A stretch of 64,000 nt of DNA from Ostreococcus lucimarinus (GCA_000092065.1 CP000589.1); one strand, 5' to 3'. Positions 34,002 to 44,273 are shown, numbered from the stretch's first letter. Made by a program: numbers and translations. Notes: generated from the sequence alone by a model not told the origin.

Positions 34002-34784
34002 TTAATCGTCCCACGACAACACCTTGGTGGTGTCCCAACGCGCGACGCCGCTTCGCGTCACCGCGTCGTCCACCATGCGCTCGGCGTCCTCCAGCGCGAC
34101 GTCGACGATTTCGTATCCGAGCATCCCTCGCATCGTCCCTCGCACGCGTTCGAATATCTCATCGCGCTCGTACCCTCGATCGCGCAATCGCGTCACGAAA
34201 TCTCCGTGCGCGCGTCCGTTCCTGTACGCCGGCGCGCGTTCCGGCGTCTTCAGCGTCGCCGCCATCGCGTCCTCGTCGTAGTCGTACAGAAACGACGTGT
34301 GGTGCAAAAACCTTCCCCTCGTGATCGCCTGCGCGTTCCCTCCGAACTTTCGCGTCCCGAACGCGTAATCGTTCTCTCGCAGCGCGAACGTCCCGCACTT
34401 ATCGAACACCCGCGCGTACACCTCTCCCGTCGCCGCCATCACTCTTCGCGGGTGCGTCTCGCGTTCGCGCACCATCGCGTCGTCGCCCGCGTTCATCGTC
34501 ATCCCCACGAACAGCGTGTCGCCGTCGCACGCGATCGTCCCACCGCCCGTGAATCGTCGCACGAGTTTCACGTCGCGCCTTCGCGCCTCTCGCGCGTCGA
34601 CCAAGCGCTCGACCGCGCCGGAGACGCCCAACACGACGGCGCGTCGCGCCGCGCCGTCGAGCGTCGTGAGCCAATCCTCGCTCGCGCGGTGTCGCAGCAG
34701 CCCCTCCTCGAGTCGCAGGAACCGCGCGATGTCGACCGATCGCGCGTGGACGTGGTACAGCGCTCGCGACGCGCCGCGCGCCAT
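34002..34784 (-). CDS. Lipoate-protein ligase / octanoyltransferase-like (BPL_LplA_LipB catalytic domain).
   Basis: 'RRFTGGGTIACDGDTLFVGM', 'RKFGGNAQAI' and 'HHTSFLYDYD' are present. ATG at 34782-34784. Confidence 0.6.
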   Translation of the reverse strand: MARGASRALYHVHARSVDIARFLRLEEGLLRHRASEDWLTTLDGAARRAVVLGVSGAVERLVDAREARRRDVKLVRRFTGGGTIACDGDTLFVGMTMNAGDDAMVRERETHPRRVMAATGEVYARVFDKCGTFALRENDYAFGTRKFGGNAQAITRGRFLHHTSFLYDYDEDAMAATLKTPERAPAYRNGRAHGDFVTRLRDRGYERDEIFERVRGTMRGMLGYEIVDVALEDAERMVDDAVTRSGVARWDTTKVLSWDD

Positions 34785-34866
34785 GCGCGTCGCGCGTCGC
34801 GTCGCGATGTGTCGTCATCGGCGGCTCAGCCTTCGTCGGCGTTCGCCACTCATCGGCGCTTCGGCG

Positions 34867-35943
34867 ATGACGGACGTCGAGCTCAAGGCGTCGCGCGCGC
34901 TCGAGGCCGCGCGCGCGTTCCTCGCGCGCTCGCCCGCGAGCGCGCGCGCGCCGAGCGCGACGACGCGCGCGAGGAACGCGCTGAATGTGAATCTCGACGC
35001 GACGTTTTCCGCGGCGACGAGCGACGACGCGAGGACGGACGCGGACGCGGCGACGACGGGACGCGCGCCGGAGACGCCCGCGTCGGTGGCGTTGGAGCTG
35101 TCGAGCGAGAGCGACGACGACGACGACGCGGCGACGGGCGGCGACGACGCGCGGGAGAGAGGCGAGGAAGGGCGACGGGTGAGGCTCGAAGTGGACGAAG
35201 ACGAGGACGTCGACGACGGCGCGCGCGATGGTGGGGAATCGGACTCCGAGGGCGTGTTCGCGGTGGCGATCAAACGCGAGCGAGACGAGGCGGAGGCGGA
35301 GGCGGAGGCGGAGGCGGAGGCGGAGGCGGAGGCGGAGGCGGAGGCGGAAACCGGCGGCGAGGCGGAGGCGAACGCCGAGACCGCGGCGGCGTTGCGAGCG
35401 AATATCGACGCGTTGCGCGAAGAGTTGGAAGAGTCGAGATGGGCGCGCGAGGCGCTGGAGACGCGCGTGCAGGAGGCGGAGAAGATCGCCGCCGAGGCGC
35501 GCTCGAAGACAATCGAGAGCGCGTTGGATCCGCAAAACCAGTTGACGAACGAGCAAGTGGCCGCGCTCAGGGCGGAGATCGAACAAGTGGAGTATTTGAA
35601 ACGTTTACTCGCGCGCGCGGAGCAGATGCGTAACGTCGCGCGCGCGGAGACGAAACAGGCGCGCGACAAACACGAGAGCGATTTGGAAATCGTTCGCAAG
35701 GAAGTCGCCGTCATGGACGCCGAGATGGAAAATTTACGGCGGCGCGTGAAAAAGGACAAAGCGAAAATTGAGGCGATGGAACGCACGACCATCGAGGCCG
35801 CGGATGAATTCGCGACGCTGTACTCGCGACAAGAGAACACCAGACGTCTCCTCGGCGCGTGCATCGTCGCCATCCTCGCCCTCGTCGTGCGCCTCGGTCT
35901 ATCGGGGCAAACTTTCATGATGAAAAACATGTATCAGTACTGA
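34867..35943 (+). CDS. Acidic coiled-coil, tail-anchored membrane protein (hypothetical).
   Basis: It has a long heptad-like region and a C-terminal hydrophobic segment 'LLGACIVAILALVVRLGL' near the stop. It contains an (EA)10-12 run encoded by a (GAGGCG)n repeat. ATG at 34867; the upstream part of the ORF is antisense to the lipoate ligase. Confidence 0.4.
   Translation: MTDVELKASRALEAARAFLARSPASARAPSATTRARNALNVNLDATFSAATSDDARTDADAATTGRAPETPASVALELSSESDDDDDAATGGDDARERGEEGRRVRLEVDEDEDVDDGARDGGESDSEGVFAVAIKRERDEAEAEAEAEAEAEAEAEAEAETGGEAEANAETAAALRANIDALREELEESRWAREALETRVQEAEKIAAEARSKTIESALDPQNQLTNEQVAALRAEIEQVEYLKRLLARAEQMRNVARAETKQARDKHESDLEIVRKEVAVMDAEMENLRRRVKKDKAKIEAMERTTIEAADEFATLYSRQENTRRLLGACIVAILALVVRLGLSGQTFMMKNMYQY
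35287..35370 (+). repeat. (GAGGCG)n hexanucleotide microsatellite: 10 perfect units plus 2 nearby units, encoding an (EA)n run in the coiled-coil tail-anchored protein.
   Basis: It is read directly: 'gaggcggaggcggaggcg...'. Confidence 0.9.
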
Positions 35944-35988: not shown

Positions 35989-36345
35989 TCATTTGCCGCG
36001 CTGACCCGCGACGCCGCCGTCGACGTCGTGTTTCCAGTCGAGAAGTCTCTGTAGCGCGTCGTCGCTCATCGAACGCGTCTCCGGGACGACGTATCGCAAA
36101 TGTTTGATTTCTTCCACGGCAGAATCATATCCGTGCTGCTTTGCGTGGACATCGCGCAGTTTTTTTGATATCTTGCGTAGTGACTCGAGGTCTTGTTCGT
36201 GCACGTACGCGGCCTCGGCGGCGCGGTCGCGAGCCTTCACCCAGTCTGTTGCGCCGACGCCGACTGTTTTCGAGTAACACCGCGCCGGCGCATCGCGAAC
36301 GAGCGCGCGCCGTGCGAACCGAGTCGTGATCGCCGTGAGTGACAT
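35989..36345 (-). CDS. Small hypothetical protein with a mitochondrial-presequence-like N-terminus (possibly ATPase-inhibitor IF1-like).
   Basis: This is an unbiased 118-aa ORF with ATG at 36343-36345. 'DRAAEAAYVHEQDLESLRKISKKL' weakly resembles the IF1 inhibitory helix. Confidence 0.25.
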   Translation of the reverse strand: MSLTAITTRFARRALVRDAPARCYSKTVGVGATDWVKARDRAAEAAYVHEQDLESLRKISKKLRDVHAKQHGYDSAVEEIKHLRYVVPETRSMSDDALQRLLDWKHDVDGGVAGQRGK

Positions 36346-36433: not shown

Positions 36434-38077
36434 TCACGGCGCCGCCGAGGTCGCGTTGGAGACGCCTAAAGGCTGGACTTCAGCTATCGGGCCTTCGCGA
36501 ATGAACGCGGCCCAGTAATCGGGCATGAGAAGGGCAAGAATGTGCGGCTCGGTGTCGCGCTCTAACGCGACCTCGAGCGTCAAGACGTCTTCGAGGAGCT
36601 TCTCGAGAGATTTGCTCACCTTGGAAAACATCGGACCGAGAGTCTGCGCGGCGCGAGAAGCGTCCGCGGGAGAAAGCCAAAGATGTTCGCGCAAAGCGGG
36701 GAGAGAACCCCCTTGAGCGCCTCGCAAGGAGTTGAGTTGTGCTGTGAGTACACCGCGCAAATTTTTCGCTTCGCTGAGCAATCGCGCGCACTCTTCGGCG
36801 TCGCCGTCGGCGCGGCAGGCGCGGCCGAACAAGCCCGCTAATAAATACTGCACCTGTTTCGTCCCACGATCCTGCGCGAGACGCTCTAAAATCCAATCTT
36901 TGATCATCATTGCCTCATTCGGGCGCTGCCACAACACGTTCACGAGCAACAAGGTGTCGAATTCGCTCACCTCGTCGCGGTTGTTCGTGTACGCCGCGAC
37001 GCGCAACATTTGCACCGCCTTGAGCAAGCGACGATCGGAAACGTACACCGGCGGCTCACACTTGTCTTGCAAAAACGTTCGTAAGTCAGTGATCAGCTCG
37101 ATGACGTTCGTCGGTACCTCGGTCTCCGCCGCGGCTTCGTATCGAATGTTCGCAAAGTCCTCCGGCTTGAGTCGGGTGTCGCTCGTCGAGACGCCGCCGT
37201 GATCGTTCGCCTTGGACCCGATCGCCGCCTCGCCGCCGAGAGATAGCAACTTCCCGAGCCCACCGGCGGATACTTGTTCGACGCTCGATCGCAATAAAAA
37301 TCGATCGTACAGCGCGTCCAACTCCTCGCTCTCCGGTAATTCATTCGAAGCGCCGACCAAGCACAACAGCGGCACGTCGACGCGTTCGCTCCCGTTATCA
37401 AACAACCTCTCGTTCAATATCGTCAACAGCGAGTTCAAGATGGCTGAATTCGCCTTAAAAATTTCATCCACAAACGCCACGTTGGCGCTGGGCAGATATC
37501 CATCAATCTTCCGCACGTACTCATCGTTTTCCAGCCCCTTCATGCTCAGCGGTCCAAACAACTCCTCCGGCACCGAAAACCGCGTGAGCAATCGTTCAAA
37601 AAATTGCCCTCCCTCGCACAGCGCGCTCAGCCGGCGTCCAAGTTCGCTCTTCGCCGTCCCAGGCGGTCCGAGCAACAGCAAGTGTTCTCCGCAGCACGCC
37701 GCCAGCAGCAACAACCGCGTCTCCGTCTCGCGTTCCACCAAACCTCGCTCCAGCGCCGTCGTCGCCGCCGCGATCTTCCTCGACAGTTCCTCCCTCCGCG
37801 CGCTCGACGACGCCATCCCGTCCTTTGCGTGCGCGTCCGCGTCGACGTCGGTCTCTCCGCTCACGATCGGCGCCATGCGCTCGCGCACGCGCTCGCGCAC
37901 CGCGCGCTCCTCGGCCGATATCTGCGCATCCTGCTCGCGCTGTCGCCGCTTCCACTCCGGCTCGTCCGCGTCCGCGGCGCGCGCGATCGCGCGACCGCGC
38001 GGTCGGACCTCGCGTCGGTCGCGCGCGCGCGCCGGGATCGCGCCGACGCGCGACGCGCGCGCCATCGCGAGCGCCAT
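36434..38077 (-). CDS. RavA-like MoxR-family AAA+ ATPase (bacterial type).
   Basis: 'LLLLGPPGTAKSELGRRLSALCEGGQFFERLLTRFSVPEELFGPLS...YLPSANVAFVDEIFKANSAILNSLLTILNERLFDNG...LVGASNELPESEELDALYDRFLLR...PVYVSDRRLLKAVQMLRVAAY' is collinear with E. coli RavA over the AAA+ and following domains. An ATG at 38075-38077 avoids overlap with the PsbP-like gene; the ORF continues to 38485 with an S/T/R-rich presequence-like extension. Confidence 0.85.
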   Translation of the reverse strand: MALAMARASRVGAIPARARDRREVRPRGRAIARAADADEPEWKRRQREQDAQISAEERAVRERVRERMAPIVSGETDVDADAHAKDGMASSSARREELSRKIAAATTALERGLVERETETRLLLLAACCGEHLLLLGPPGTAKSELGRRLSALCEGGQFFERLLTRFSVPEELFGPLSMKGLENDEYVRKIDGYLPSANVAFVDEIFKANSAILNSLLTILNERLFDNGSERVDVPLLCLVGASNELPESEELDALYDRFLLRSSVEQVSAGGLGKLLSLGGEAAIGSKANDHGGVSTSDTRLKPEDFANIRYEAAAETEVPTNVIELITDLRTFLQDKCEPPVYVSDRRLLKAVQMLRVAAYTNNRDEVSEFDTLLLVNVLWQRPNEAMMIKDWILERLAQDRGTKQVQYLLAGLFGRACRADGDAEECARLLSEAKNLRGVLTAQLNSLRGAQGGSLPALREHLWLSPADASRAAQTLGPMFSKVSKSLEKLLEDVLTLEVALERDTEPHILALLMPDYWAAFIREGPIAEVQPLGVSNATSAAP

Positions 38078-38147
38078 GGATGAATGCGTGCGCGCGCGGC
38101 AATCTGACGTCAGCGCGTCGTCGTCGTTATCCGCACACGCGCGCGCG

Positions 38148-38259
38148 ATGCGAGGCGCGCTCGCGACGCCGCGCGCGACGCGCGGCGCGCGACGCGACGC
38201 CGCGACGGTCGGTCGACGCGGGCGCGCGACGCGCGCGCGCGCGGCGACGCGCGGCGACG

Positions 38260-38290
<31 letters not shown>

Positions 38291-38942
38291 ACGGCGCGCG
38301 CTGGTCGCGCTGGTCGCGCTCGCGAACGCGCGACGCGCGAACGCGGGTCCGGCGACGCGACCGTTCGTCGTCGACGCGGTGAAGAACGAGCGATGGGTGG
38401 CCGTGGACGCGACGTTCGAGGTGCCGGCGACGTGGGCGAACAGGCCGGGGCAACGCGCGAGGGTGGATAAATACGTCCTGTACACGGATACGTACGGGCC
38501 GAATTATCGGTACACGACGACGGTGCCGAAACTGCTCGGCGACGGCGAGGCGAAGATCGATCAACTCGCGCTGGTCGTCGTGTCGAGGGAGGGATTGGAG
38601 AGCGTGGGGGATTTGGGGACGATTGAAAGGATCGATCCCGCGCGCGCGTTCGGCGTGGAAGGTTTCGAGGGATTGGCGGCGAGCGAGGTCGCGAAGGCGA
38701 GCGTGAGAGAGGACGCGGGCAAGCAAACGTATTATCAGTGGGAGCTCTTCGATGGCCAACATCGATTTTTGATGTCGGCGTGCGTGTCGGGAGGGGGGTT
38801 GTATTGCTGGGTCGCTCAAATCGACGGCGCGCGGTTCGACGCCGACGCGGAGACGTACAGGGCGGTTTTGGACTCGGTGAACATCCCGCTCGTGGAAGAA
38901 TCGCGTAACGATATGTCTAGTCGTATTTATGAAACCCGCTAG
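38148..38942 (+). CDS. PsbP-domain protein (PsbP-like / PPD, thylakoid lumen) with a transit peptide and twin-arginine signal.
   Basis: 'TRRRALVALVALANARRANA' has an RR plus AxA layout. The C-terminal 'GKQTYYQWELFDGQHRFLMSACVSGGGLYCWVAQIDGARF' matches PsbP 'GKQYY.L......HQLITATV.GGKLYICKAQAGDKRWF'. ATG at 38148. Confidence 0.7.
38258..38288 (+). repeat. (ACG / GAC)9-10 trinucleotide run encoding poly-Thr in the PsbP-like transit peptide.
   Basis: 'gacgacgacgacgacgacgacgacgacg' gives 'TTTTTTTTT' in the gene frame. Confidence 0.85.
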
Positions 38943-42178: not shown

Positions 42179-44273
42179 ATGAACGCGTCGACGTGCGTCG
42201 TGTGCGGCGCGACGGGACGCGGGAAGACGACGGTCGTGAACGGATTGGTGCGGGAAACGCTGCGGGAAGAGATTCTTCTCGGAACGGACGACGAGGACGC
42301 GCGCGCGACGGAGCGGGCGCGCGCGGTCGTCGATGAGGTGCGACGAAGGACGACGCGCGACGACGCGAAAAACGCGAATGCGATGGTGCGCGCGCTCGAG
42401 ACGAAGCGCGGCGAGTGACGCGCGCGCGGGACCGATGCGACAGAGCGAGACGACGCGGGCGAGGCGCGATGGAAATCGGCGCGCGGCGAGACGCGAAGGA
42501 CGGACGACGAACGGAGGGGATTGGAGGTGGCGACAGCGCGAAGAAGTGCGAGAAATGATGTCTAGTGATGAGGGGCGACGAGCGATGGAGGCGTGCGTGC
42601 GAAAACAGAATGCGTTGGATGTGATGCCGACGAGCGCGAGGACGGGGTGCCCGATAGCGATTCGACGCGCGACGTTGGACGACGAAGATGAAAAACAGGC
42701 GGCGAACGGCGTGTTCATCGCGCGAGTCGTCGTGCGATACCGAGAGGAGCATGAACTGGAGCAGGCGTTGCTAGATGTGGCGATTCAGTCGCGCACGGCG
42801 GGAGAGTTGGCGGGGAGACTGTGCGCCGGAGGGACGCCGCCAAGAAGAAATCGCGCCGACGAGGACGAGGCGGAGGCGAACGACGGATCGATCGAAGAAC
42901 TCGCGAGCGTGCTCGGTGAAGACCCAAAAGACGTGAAAGCGCGTGTGTTGGAGTGTTACGATCGATGTGAGCCATTTCTTCCAGCGCGCGTTCGAGATTT
43001 GCTCGGACGCGAACGCGTGTACGAAGTCCGAAGCGCTTGCGCCGGCGCCGCACTCACGGCTATTCGTTCTTTTATTTTACGCGTGGCGACGGCGGGTAAG
43101 TGGACGCACTGGGGCATCATAGAAGGTACGGTCGAGGTCGAGCTTCCGTTAGCGTACGACGTCAAGTTCGTGGATACGCCCGGGATTGATGCGTCGCAAT
43201 TCTCTCTCAAGCGATTGCGCCGAGTAATTGGCGCTGAAGCCGAGGAGCGATTCGGGATGTTCATATACGTGTGCGGTAAAGATGCACCGAAAGAGTGGGA
43301 GTGGAGCGCTCTGCATGCAATGGGTACGCTAAAGAAGATCGTCACCGAGGGTCCGCGGCTGTGTTTGTGCTGGCCCGTGGAGCTCGTGGTGAACGCCAAC
43401 GGACGTCCAGATGGCTTTGTCACGAATCTCCAAATCAAAAAGTTCCAGGATCGCACGTTGAAGATGCTGCGATCGGACTCTAATCATTGGCGCGAACGTC
43501 TTGATCAATGTATCGTCGCATCCAAGGTCGATGGCTTGCGCGGTGATTTAAGACGCGGCATGGCGCTGGCGTTTGTTCGGGCGTTTAAGCCCGACGCCTC
43601 GACGATTTTGAAGTATTCCATGTATCAGCTGGCGTTTTCGGTGGAAGAAGAGCTCAAACCATCACCGCCGAGCGATAACGGCAGTGGAGTCTTACCGAGC
43701 ACCGCGGTGGTCGCTGACGCAAAACCTTCGACAGACCCTTGTCCGAAGACCAAGCGAAAGATTGACGAAGAAGCCGCGACGAAAGCGTCGCCACCAAAGA
43801 AACGCCTTAAGAAGCAACCACGCCAGTGTACCATCGCTGATCCATTCGTGTTCAACGAAGACGATGGTCTTTTTGCCGACGAAGACGCCGCAACACCTCC
43901 AATGTTCGGCAAGCACATCGCAAAAACCAAATCAACGCGCTCGCCGCTCGTCGACGCCAACGAAAAGTCTCGCGCGACGGCGGCGGCGCGACGCAAAACC
44001 AAACCGTCGAACACCGCACCGAAGCGACCGCTCGTCTTGACGTCGACGACCGTTTCTCCGCCGAAGTCGAAGCATCGAGGTGCTGAAGCACCGCAGCCGA
44101 AGCTTTCCCCTCAACTCTCCGCGACGCCCGCGTCCAAGCCTGCGCGAAATCGGCCAAAGTTCGTCGTCGCCTCCGTCGACGACGGTCCCACCCCATCCCC
44201 ACCCCCCGCGCGTCCGAAACGCCCGCGCGAATGCACGAAACAACCTTGGTGGGTCGTCCAATCGCATCGATAG
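42179..44273 (+). CDS. Dynamin/GBP-superfamily large GTPase. Proposed model is join(42179..42247,42609..44273): a 23-codon P-loop first exon, a GTGCGG donor, a 361-nt intron and a CAG acceptor.
   Basis: Exon 1 encodes 'MNASTCVVCGATGRGKTTVVNGL' (G1). Exon 2 continues in phase 0 with 'NALDVMPTSARTGCPIAIRRATL', restoring the dynamin-like G1-switch I spacing (compare '[26 protein letters not shown]'). Later 'DVKFVDTPGIDAS' is a G3 (DxxG) motif. The C-terminus is a K/P/S-rich tail. The two pieces are in different frames in the raw ORF track (81-aa and 646-aa ORFs). Confidence 0.5.

Follow-up and report, generated by a model that had tools for sequence, protein, structure and literature searches.

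A LARA-less RavA-type ATPase in Ostreococcus lucimarinus and its predicted ViaA-like partners in algae

Pairs of a MoxR-type AAA+ ATPase and a protein with a VWA domain, E. coli RavA-ViaA among them, are held to be prokaryotic chaperones, and their substrates are debated even in E. coli. A common logic, a hexameric motor of MoxR type with a VWA/MIDAS adaptor, also underlies the Rubisco activase CbbQ-CbbO, NorQ-NorD, CoxD-CoxE and the Mg-chelatase ChlI-ChlD; each such pair has one dedicated metalloenzyme or complex as its target (PMC4660213, PMC5437159, PMC10743472). We analysed 64 000 nucleotides of Ostreococcus lucimarinus DNA (GCA_000092065.1 CP000589.1), hereafter the window, in which a minus-strand gene for a RavA-type ATPase stands head to head with a plus-strand gene for a PsbP-like protein. 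Probably the ATPase is an organelle-targeted, LARA-less motor of RavA type and one half of an old and widespread algal chaperone pair that resembles RavA-ViaA. It shares the motor and adaptor logic with the four other pairs just named, although these belong to separate MoxR subfamilies.

The ATPase gene itself is ordinary and is already annotated, variously as "predicted protein", "MoxR-like ATPase" or "ATPase RavA". An earlier note on this DNA, made from the sequence alone, knew of no described eukaryotic RavA, and our literature search concurs: in the library searched, no publication treats a RavA-ViaA system of algae or of any other eukaryote, and automatic annotations alone name the proteins. 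Judged from sequences and predicted folds, the algal RavA-ViaA system appears to be real, widespread in phytoplankton and unstudied. It would be a conserved version, predicted to be directed to an organelle, in eukaryotic phytoplankton that include the ecologically dominant Mamiellales and diatom-type algae. Chlamydomonas and Ostreococcus are tractable hosts for work on its function, as probably are the model diatoms, if the fused form described below is present in them.

The ATPase and its relation to RavA

The minus-strand open reading frame (ORF) spans 36434..38485 and has its first ATG at 38077, from which 547 aa are encoded. The product clusters at 90% identity or more with O. lucimarinus CCE9901 XP_001419855.1 / ABO98148.1 / UniProt A4S348, also 547 aa, and the public labels in that cluster are "predicted protein" or "MoxR-like ATPase". 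Pfam assigns residues 101-285 to PF20030 bpMoxR (1e-60, 204.8 bits against a cutoff of 27), with further matches to AAA_5 (1e-25) and to the lid family PF17868 AAA_lid_8 (6e-23, 80.9 bits against a cutoff of 22.8); the Mg_chelatase and AAA_3 models match only marginally. E. coli RavA was the sole sequence match among solved structures, at E = 2.4e-58, residues 98-394 of the query being collinear with RavA 9-298. The AlphaFold2 model, built with 34 homologues, has a mean predicted local distance difference test (pLDDT) score of 85.9. Its best solved match in Foldseek is RavA 3nbx at 5.7e-21, and the next, MoxR CHU_0153, lies ten orders behind at 8e-11. Over the Foldseek-aligned part, the AAA+ module and lid are collinear with those of E. 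coli RavA (3nbx, 6q7l) at 36-37% identity.

Catalytic residues were checked at the Walker A lysine, the Walker B DE, sensor 1, the arginine finger and sensor 2. K143, D204, E205, N245, R259, R349 and R350 are invariant in the alignment of the 34 homologues, and GPPGTAKS, VDEIF, ASNE, YDRF and SDRR each fall on the corresponding motif of E. coli RavA, with identity at Walker A, Walker B, the sensor and SDRR. With the core and lid above their gathering scores and the ATPase motifs intact, the protein belongs to the RavA subfamily of MoxR AAA+ proteins. The earlier note had placed the RavA similarity far beyond that of generic AAA+ proteins, and the Pfam scores, the collinear alignment and the top-ranking structure bear this out; the four peptide blocks that it quoted are all in the translation and all inside the RavA alignment. 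The top matches of the ATPase are of RavA type and not of midasin type.

The likeness to E. coli RavA does not extend over the whole chain. On the NCBIfam RavA equivalog NF010054 the ATPase scores 242.5 bits against a cutoff of 681 and covers model positions 4-311 of 498 only; past about residue 311 neither this model nor the structure-database search gave a sequence match to RavA. No LARA domain, the beta-rich insertion by which the C-terminal helical domain of RavA binds LdcI, was found, the AlphaFold2 model being all-helical after residue 305 with pLDDT > 90 through most of the C-terminal region. This helical domain, which is kept in the green-algal and in many fused homologues, stands in place of the triple-helix plus LARA region of RavA. 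Because LARA is lacking, neither an LdcI cage nor LARA-mediated binding of phosphatidylglycerol is expected for the algal ATPase.

Six of the closest relatives among bacteria, namely those of Lujinxingia, Thiomargarita, Archangium, Oceanisphaera, a Vibrio sp. and a metagenome-assembled genome of Rhodocyclaceae, reach 267-298 bits on the same equivalog and match about the first 330 model positions. Since these too score below the cutoff, we place the ATPase in a broad LARA-less group of RavA-subfamily MoxR AAA+ proteins, outside the enterobacterial equivalog. The LARA-less ravA-viaA pairs (for example in Thiomargarita, Lujinxingia, Oceanisphaera, Vibrio sp. and Phycisphaerales) are the nearest relatives, likewise below the equivalog cutoff, and some of them are weakly similar to the algal C-terminal helical region. 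Unlike the algal proteins, the bacterial ones (Gammaproteobacteria, Myxococcota, Planctomycetota) come from two genes on one strand and have no presequence. We found no experimental characterisation of these LARA-less bacterial pairs in the literature.

According to the earlier note, the ATPase ORF could be extended 136 codons upstream, to 38485. The frame is indeed open there, but the extension as a coding region was rejected: it lacks an ATG, the orthologue alignment and the NCBI gene model back the 547-aa form, and the region codes for the PsbP-like presequence on the opposite strand. Longer database versions exist, of 650 aa (a metagenome contig) and 661 aa (also an NCBI record). They most likely use upstream or non-ATG starts picked by gene callers and give no evidence of a longer protein.

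ViaA-like partners, distribution and origin

In bacteria, the earlier note stated, ravA is co-transcribed with viaA. Of the 80 bacterial loci described below, 73 have a ViaA-like gene directly downstream of the ATPase gene and on the same strand, the classical arrangement of the pair. No ViaA-type partner adjoins the ATPase gene in the window: a ViaA-like hidden Markov model (HMM) run against the six-frame translation of all 64 kb gave no match at E <= 10, and Pfam detected no VWA domain among the large ORFs within ~20 kb of the ATPase. The claim that a partner is missing is therefore right for the window, but the ATPase is probably not an orphan, since both stand-alone and fused ViaA-like proteins are found in the lineage.

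The fused proteins emerged from the search of cluster representatives, where many proteins of 700-1500 aa carry a VWA domain ahead of a RavA-like module. At least 29 representatives fuse a ViaA-like part to the ATPase, one of them from the diatom Conticribra weissflogii. The order within the chain is the ViaA-like part, sometimes a Clp_N domain, then the RavA-like part, the reverse of the bacterial ravA-viaA gene order. Four tested fusions (P0230, P0236, P0249, P0254) match the NCBIfam model NF008230, "RavA stimulator ViaA", at 1e-25 to 4e-35, and the MIDAS residues are invariant across the fusions. Since both proteins are joined in one chain, the fusions are independent evidence that the two act together, and their presence in at least 29 cluster representatives gives indirect support to a physical interaction of the algal ATPase with ViaA. 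The fused set also includes P0233, P0234 and ~23 other representatives, and several GC-rich members resemble a "viaA" of Symbiodinium. Animal VWA8 and midasin, eukaryotic proteins connected with organelles or with assembly, similarly unite MoxR/dynein-like AAA+ modules of AAA_5 type and a VWA domain in one chain (PMC10743472), but these proteins have several tandem AAA modules and a C-terminal VWA domain and are not of the RavA subfamily.

Stand-alone ViaA-like proteins were retrieved with a profile of the ViaA-like parts. They come from Tetradesmus, Raphidocelis, Scenedesmus (labelled "viaA"), Trebouxia, Sanguina, Pyramimonas and Symbiodinium (also "viaA"), and there are several further clusters from marine metagenomes. 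Four that were tested (P0389, P0394, P0399, P0403) match the ViaA model at 1e-39 to 1e-44 and keep the DxSxS, the GGT and mostly the TDG of the MIDAS. All four metagenomic clusters for which contigs were retrieved lie on compact eukaryotic contigs, in the order zf-CW/SET (SDG2-type) gene, unannotated gene of ~450-470 aa, ViaA-like gene, ERCC8; the GC content and mutual identities of these contigs fit Ostreococcus-like and Micromonas-like genomes.

The algal lineage, like E. coli, thus appears to have a ViaA-like partner that combines helices at the N-terminus with a VWA domain bearing a MIDAS. Green algae encode it at an unlinked nuclear locus, whereas other algae have it in one chain with the ATPase. 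Both arrangements differ from the E. coli ravA-viaA gene pair, the fusions by placing ViaA before RavA. The C-terminal ends differ too: E. coli ViaA has an Arg-rich amphipathic lipid-binding helix, and the green-algal ViaA-like proteins end in CTHxHxFKSWSAVGG. This tail, with its Cys and His residues, is shared by P0389, P0392, P0394, P0399, P0401, P0405 and P0416, and could be a metal- or partner-binding element.

On the Ostreococcus-like contigs the ViaA-like gene is followed immediately by a WD40 gene, and PF20030 is the best Pfam match of the ATPase; together these recall the "ternary" conflict or defence systems of MoxR, VWA and beta-propeller components in the PF20030 description. Such a system is very improbable here. 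The WD40 protein is an orthologue of ERCC8/CSA (9e-40, from residue 1) and is absent from the counterpart position at the Micromonas-like locus, so it was rejected as a propeller partner. RavA itself is the best solved match of the ATPase; in the bacterial relatives a viaA gene directly downstream was the only partner sought and found, beta-propeller genes not having been searched for; and the window holds no dedicated beta-propeller component linked to the pair.

All named hits among the 120 best database matches to the ATPase are green algae or Prasinoderma. Besides the latter they comprise Bathycoccus, Pyramimonas, Tetraselmis, Cymbomonas, Bryopsis, Chlamydomonas, Volvox, Tetradesmus, Chlorella, Micractinium, Coccomyxa, Picochlorum, Ostreobium and Pycnococcus (where the label is "ATPase RavA"), and no streptophyte is among them. 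Arabidopsis At1g73170 may be RavA-like; the only paper found on it lists it as "AtLon10", with nothing more said. Two matches (P0034, P0063) are complete MMETSP transcripts, and the gene is therefore expressed. Orthologues are syntenic in a close relative (contig L001), O. tauri (L003), Bathycoccus (L002) and the Micromonas-like contigs L087-L089. In the Bathycoccus orthologue (L002 6208-7690) two reading frames meet at ~6500-6510 and the called gene is not colinear in translation; the gene probably has a short spliceosomal intron.

Bacterial and archaeal genomes were scanned at one genome per species, and the 80 best loci were taken. They are 42-55% identical to the algal ATPase, named examples being Lujinxingia, Endozoicomonas, Parabeggiatoa, Thiomargarita, Archangium, Phycisphaerales, Oceanisphaera, Vibrio and Burkholderiales. 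The nearest non-algal relatives are bacteria (proteobacteria, Myxococcota, Planctomycetota) with 50-55% identity in the AAA+ module, and cyanobacteria are missing from the 80 best loci. When the AAA+ module and lid were used for a neighbour-joining tree, 111 of 200 bootstrap replicates separated 41 sequences, algal with a name or fused, from the 80 bacterial loci, a figure for the set restricted to labelled taxa; with 94 unlabelled cluster representatives included, the exact split for an algal clade of 76 taxa was recovered in 11 of 100. The earlier note had left the origin open between horizontal transfer and the endosymbiont. A bacterial origin within the RavA clade, in what is now a nuclear context, stands; descent from the endosymbiont is not favoured, because of the lack of cyanobacteria among the 80 best matches, and an old transfer from non-cyanobacterial bacteria appears to fit better.

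That closeness to bacterial sequences, together with a metagenomic orthologue (P0040) labelled "[bacterium]", would also be seen if the gene were a bacterial contaminant or a very recent, lineage-specific acquisition with no established eukaryotic role. The earlier note thought contamination unlikely, and the data make either case extremely improbable: the gene stands amid eukaryotic genes whose GC content at third codon positions (GC3) it matches, it is syntenic in O. tauri, Bathycoccus and the Micromonas-like contigs, it is transcribed and probably has an intron in Bathycoccus, and its orthologues spread across Chlorophyta. Synteny, matching GC3 and wide distribution rule out both.

Compartment and proposed mechanism

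In the Mamiellophyceae alignment of the ATPase, conservation begins at "EPEWK", about residue 39. The stretch before it is species-specific and rich in Ala, Arg, Ser and Thr, and pLDDT is below 50 for residues 1-33. Beyond the missing LARA domain, a nuclear gene and this putative organellar presequence set the algal ATPase apart from E. coli RavA. Of the fused proteins whose N-termini are complete, 8 or 9 have a hydrophobic signal peptide at the start and, right after it, (A/S)↓F; instances are VES↓F, SIS↓F, VNA↓F, TNS↓F and CDA↓F. A motif of this ASAFAP type is said, by Kilian and Kroth in 2005 and Gruber et al. in 2007, to be the plastid import signature of diatoms and their relatives. The named eukaryotic hits of the ATPase and ViaA-like searches are all plastid-bearing. 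Because of the signal peptides with phenylalanine and of this restriction to plastid-bearing lineages we favour the plastid, probably as the site where the ATPase works, with the stroma as the most likely compartment. If that location is true, the ATPase would be a new AAA+ assembly or repair factor for chloroplast biology.

A mitochondrial pair that aids the maturation of respiratory complex I or of a succinate/fumarate oxidoreductase is an unlikely but serious alternative, in that E. coli RavA-ViaA is tied to the Nuo and Frd complexes (PMC3893208, PMC10585395). The Ala/Arg-rich presequence would suit a mitochondrial signal too. Chlorophytes and diatoms are not known to have a plastid NDH-1 complex, which removes the obvious plastid counterpart of Nuo. 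The named eukaryotic hits speak against a mitochondrial pair, being confined to plastid-bearing algae, as does the signal peptide with phenylalanine of the fusions, which belongs to plastid import of the diatom type and not to mitochondrial import; moreover, in the work of Felix et al. ViaA did not bind directly to either NuoEFG or FrdA in purified form (PMC9489729).

Some of these points also weigh against the reading of an old, organelle-targeted pair in the plastid. The E. coli precedents are respiratory complexes and seem a better fit to mitochondria than to plastids, and the putative presequence could serve either organelle alike. The neighbour-joining support for one algal clade is moderate. 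The ViaA-like genes come from Ostreococcus-like and Micromonas-like contigs and from named green algae, and for O. lucimarinus itself such a gene is a prediction.

How an algal pair might work can be sketched from its described relatives. The ATPase would form a hexamer, and the ViaA-like adaptor would recruit it through its N-terminal helical part. The VWA/MIDAS domain of the adaptor would bind a specific organellar complex, probably one that is membrane-associated and cofactor-bearing, and ATP hydrolysis would then remodel, mature or disassemble what is bound, in line with proposals made for RavA-ViaA of E. coli and for further MoxR-VWA pairs. Felix et al. report that E. coli RavA without LARA still binds ViaA, of which the N-terminal part suffices, and that the VWA part of ViaA binds anionic lipids (PMC9489729). 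Since E. coli RavA can do without LARA in this respect, an algal RavA that lacks the domain could likewise depend on ViaA as a motor.

The PsbP-like neighbour and the locus

The plus-strand ORF starts at ATG 38148 and stops at 38942 (264 aa). The earlier note called its product a PsbP-domain protein with a transit peptide and a twin-arginine signal, and profile, fold and motifs all agree. As a single sequence it stays below the Pfam cutoff (19.5 against 23.5 bits), but a 23-sequence profile reaches PsbP/OEE2 at 4.3e-8, with the presequence region aligned to the PsbP signal. In its AlphaFold2 model pLDDT exceeds 90 over most of the mature domain, and Foldseek puts PsbP, PPL or CyanoP structures in all of the first 18 places, at probability 1.00. 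Across 23 homologues R48 is nearly invariant and R49 invariant, and the RR pair, the hydrophobic stretch and the AxA are conserved, from which the presequence is, by motif, a lumen signal of the twin-arginine translocation (Tat) type. The alpha-beta-alpha sandwich fold and this bipartite twin-arginine transit peptide assign the protein to the PsbP family. It shares the fold with PsbP, PPL1/2, PPD1-8 and CyanoP, and the Tat-type lumen signal with PsbP, but is very divergent, with 12-20% identity to solved members. At the sensitivity used only 35 homologues were found, all of Mamiellophyceae type or from Pyramimonas.

The two start codons are separated by 70 bp, as the earlier note had estimated. 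The CCATGG at 38074-38079 contains an ATG on both strands; the plus-strand one, at 38076, is in frame with the PsbP-like ORF, to which it would add 24 codons, with a 2-bp overlap of the starts of both coding sequences (CDSs). This start probably explains the database versions of the PsbP-like protein with 286-290 aa. The orthologue alignment favours 38148, and the longer versions most likely reflect upstream starts picked by gene callers, with no evidence of a longer protein.

The earlier note went on to suggest co-regulation of the two genes and a coupling to photosystem II (PSII). Three Ostreococcus genomes keep the head-to-head arrangement: that of the window, that of L001 and, with a spacer of ~107 bp, that of O. 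tauri (L003). Midway in the spacer of the window, at 38105-38112, is the palindrome TGACGTCA, of the CRE/ACGT-core type, which occurs twice in the 64 kb; the sole copies in L001 (5968-5975) and L003 (5906-5913) are in the equivalent spacer. Because of this conserved palindrome in the shared spacer, common transcriptional control of the two genes is possible in Ostreococcus.

Outside Ostreococcus the arrangement is different. Upstream of the ATPase gene the Micromonas-like loci have, in place of a PsbP-like gene, one gene of 84 aa and one for an enoyl-CoA hydratase/3-hydroxyacyl-CoA dehydrogenase; on another Mamiellales-type contig the PsbP-like gene shares the strand of the ATPase gene and is ~6 kb away from it; and there is none within 6 kb of the Bathycoccus ATPase. 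The 194-aa gene beside the Bathycoccus orthologue was considered as PsbP-like and rejected by BLASTP. Nor does TGACGTCA occur ahead of the ATPase gene at the loci of Bathycoccus and of the Micromonas-like contigs. Spacers of 17 to ~110 bp are the norm in this region: the stop codon of the PsbP-like gene is 17 bp from that of the PfkB gene, and in L001 the start codons of two further head-to-head pairs are 80 and 97 bp apart. The pairing is an Ostreococcus-specific adjacency and largely a consequence of genome compaction.

A stronger proposal would make the ATPase and the lumenal PsbP-like protein a co-regulated module on a bidirectional promoter, for instance for assembly or export of a PSII or lumen factor. 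We think this quite unlikely, despite the short spacer and palindrome kept in three genomes and a MoxR chaperone of M. tuberculosis that is reported to aid the export of a Tat substrate (PMC4810496). The ATPase family spreads far past the narrow PsbP-like family, the neighbours differ in other Mamiellales as just described, nearby head-to-head pairs have similar spacers, and the compartments would differ, stroma for the ATPase and lumen for the PsbP-like protein. The co-regulation suggested earlier thus keeps the adjacency and the palindrome in its favour, whereas the coupling to PSII does not hold, given the other genes found elsewhere; the comparative data give no support to a functional link of the motor, which is probably stromal, with the lumenal protein. 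Still more doubtful is a scheme that joins all of these elements, namely a plastid RavA-ViaA system derived from non-cyanobacterial bacteria, split in green algae and fused in diatom and dinoflagellate types, which would serve the biogenesis of thylakoid or photosynthetic complexes and in Ostreococcus be coupled through the TGACGTCA promoter to a PsbP-domain factor.

Coordinates of the features are collected in Table 1.

Table 1. Features of the ATPase/PsbP-like locus (window coordinates) and of ViaA-like loci on metagenomic contigs
Feature	Position	Strand	Basis
RavA-subfamily MoxR AAA+ ATPase without LARA, 547 aa	36434..38077	-	CDS; Pfam, RavA alignment, AlphaFold2, database cluster
Variable, disordered Ala/Arg-rich presequence, residues 1-38, putative organellar transit peptide	37964..38077	-	pLDDT, N-terminal alignment
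AAA+ core, residues 101-285 (PF20030/AAA_5)	37223..37777	-	Walker A GPPGTAKS (K143), Walker B VDEI (D204/E205), sensor-1 N245
RavA-type AAA lid, residues 325-396 (PF17868 AAA_lid_8), with SDRR motif (R349/R350)	36890..37105	-	Pfam, RavA alignment, homologue alignment
C-terminal all-helical domain, residues ~400-530, no beta-rich LARA	36488..36880	-	AlphaFold2, RavA model coverage, C-terminal HMM
Proposed 136-codon upstream extension of the ATPase ORF, regarded as non-coding on this strand	38078..38485	-	Frame open, no ATG
Head-to-head spacer between both start codons, 70 bp	38078..38147	.	Holds palindrome TGACGTCA
PsbP-domain protein, 264 aa, bipartite presequence, read as targeted to the thylakoid lumen	38148..38942	+	CDS; profile, fold
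PsbP-like presequence	38148..38345	+	S/T/R-rich stretch, twin arginines R48/R49, hydrophobic ALVALVALA, ANA↓G
Stand-alone ViaA-like neighbourhoods, Mamiellales-type contigs	L006 4001-7853; L091 5001-8731; L092; L004		Conserved gene order

The window has a GC content of 62.7% and is densely packed with eukaryotic genes that have few introns. The ATPase gene, with a GC3 of 0.76, is in line with its neighbours, which are eukaryotic (ENTH, PfkB, SNARE, kinase, L6e, Bud13). Pfam scans of the large ORFs between 15.6 and 58.8 kb identified a phage-type RNA polymerase, L6e, Bud13, a protein of the triose-phosphate transporter family, kinases, LplA, SNARE, PfkB, ENTH, GNAT, PH/WW, CXC and RNase II.

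An ORF of 118 aa with no Pfam match lies at 35989-36345, 88 bp beyond the stop codon of the ATPase gene. In O. tauri the gene model for the ATPase (L003 3715-5893) is 701 aa long and continues for ~540 bp after homology ends, probably because it takes in a small downstream gene as well, the counterpart of the 118-aa ORF in the window. Further along, a 404-aa ORF at 34729-35943 (+), with no significant Pfam match, has a hydrophobic C-terminus and a long (Glu-Ala)n repeat at ~35250-35330, which reads as Arg-Leu or Arg-rich runs in other frames. Its start faces that of a lipoate ligase gene of LplA type (34002-34784), with which it overlaps in the coordinates listed. On the other side of the pair, a 646-aa ORF at 42333-44273 (+) has no Pfam match; GC and AT skew are unusually positive over 42-44 kb, and the ORF overlaps the upstream part of a long opposite-strand open frame that holds the ENTH gene.

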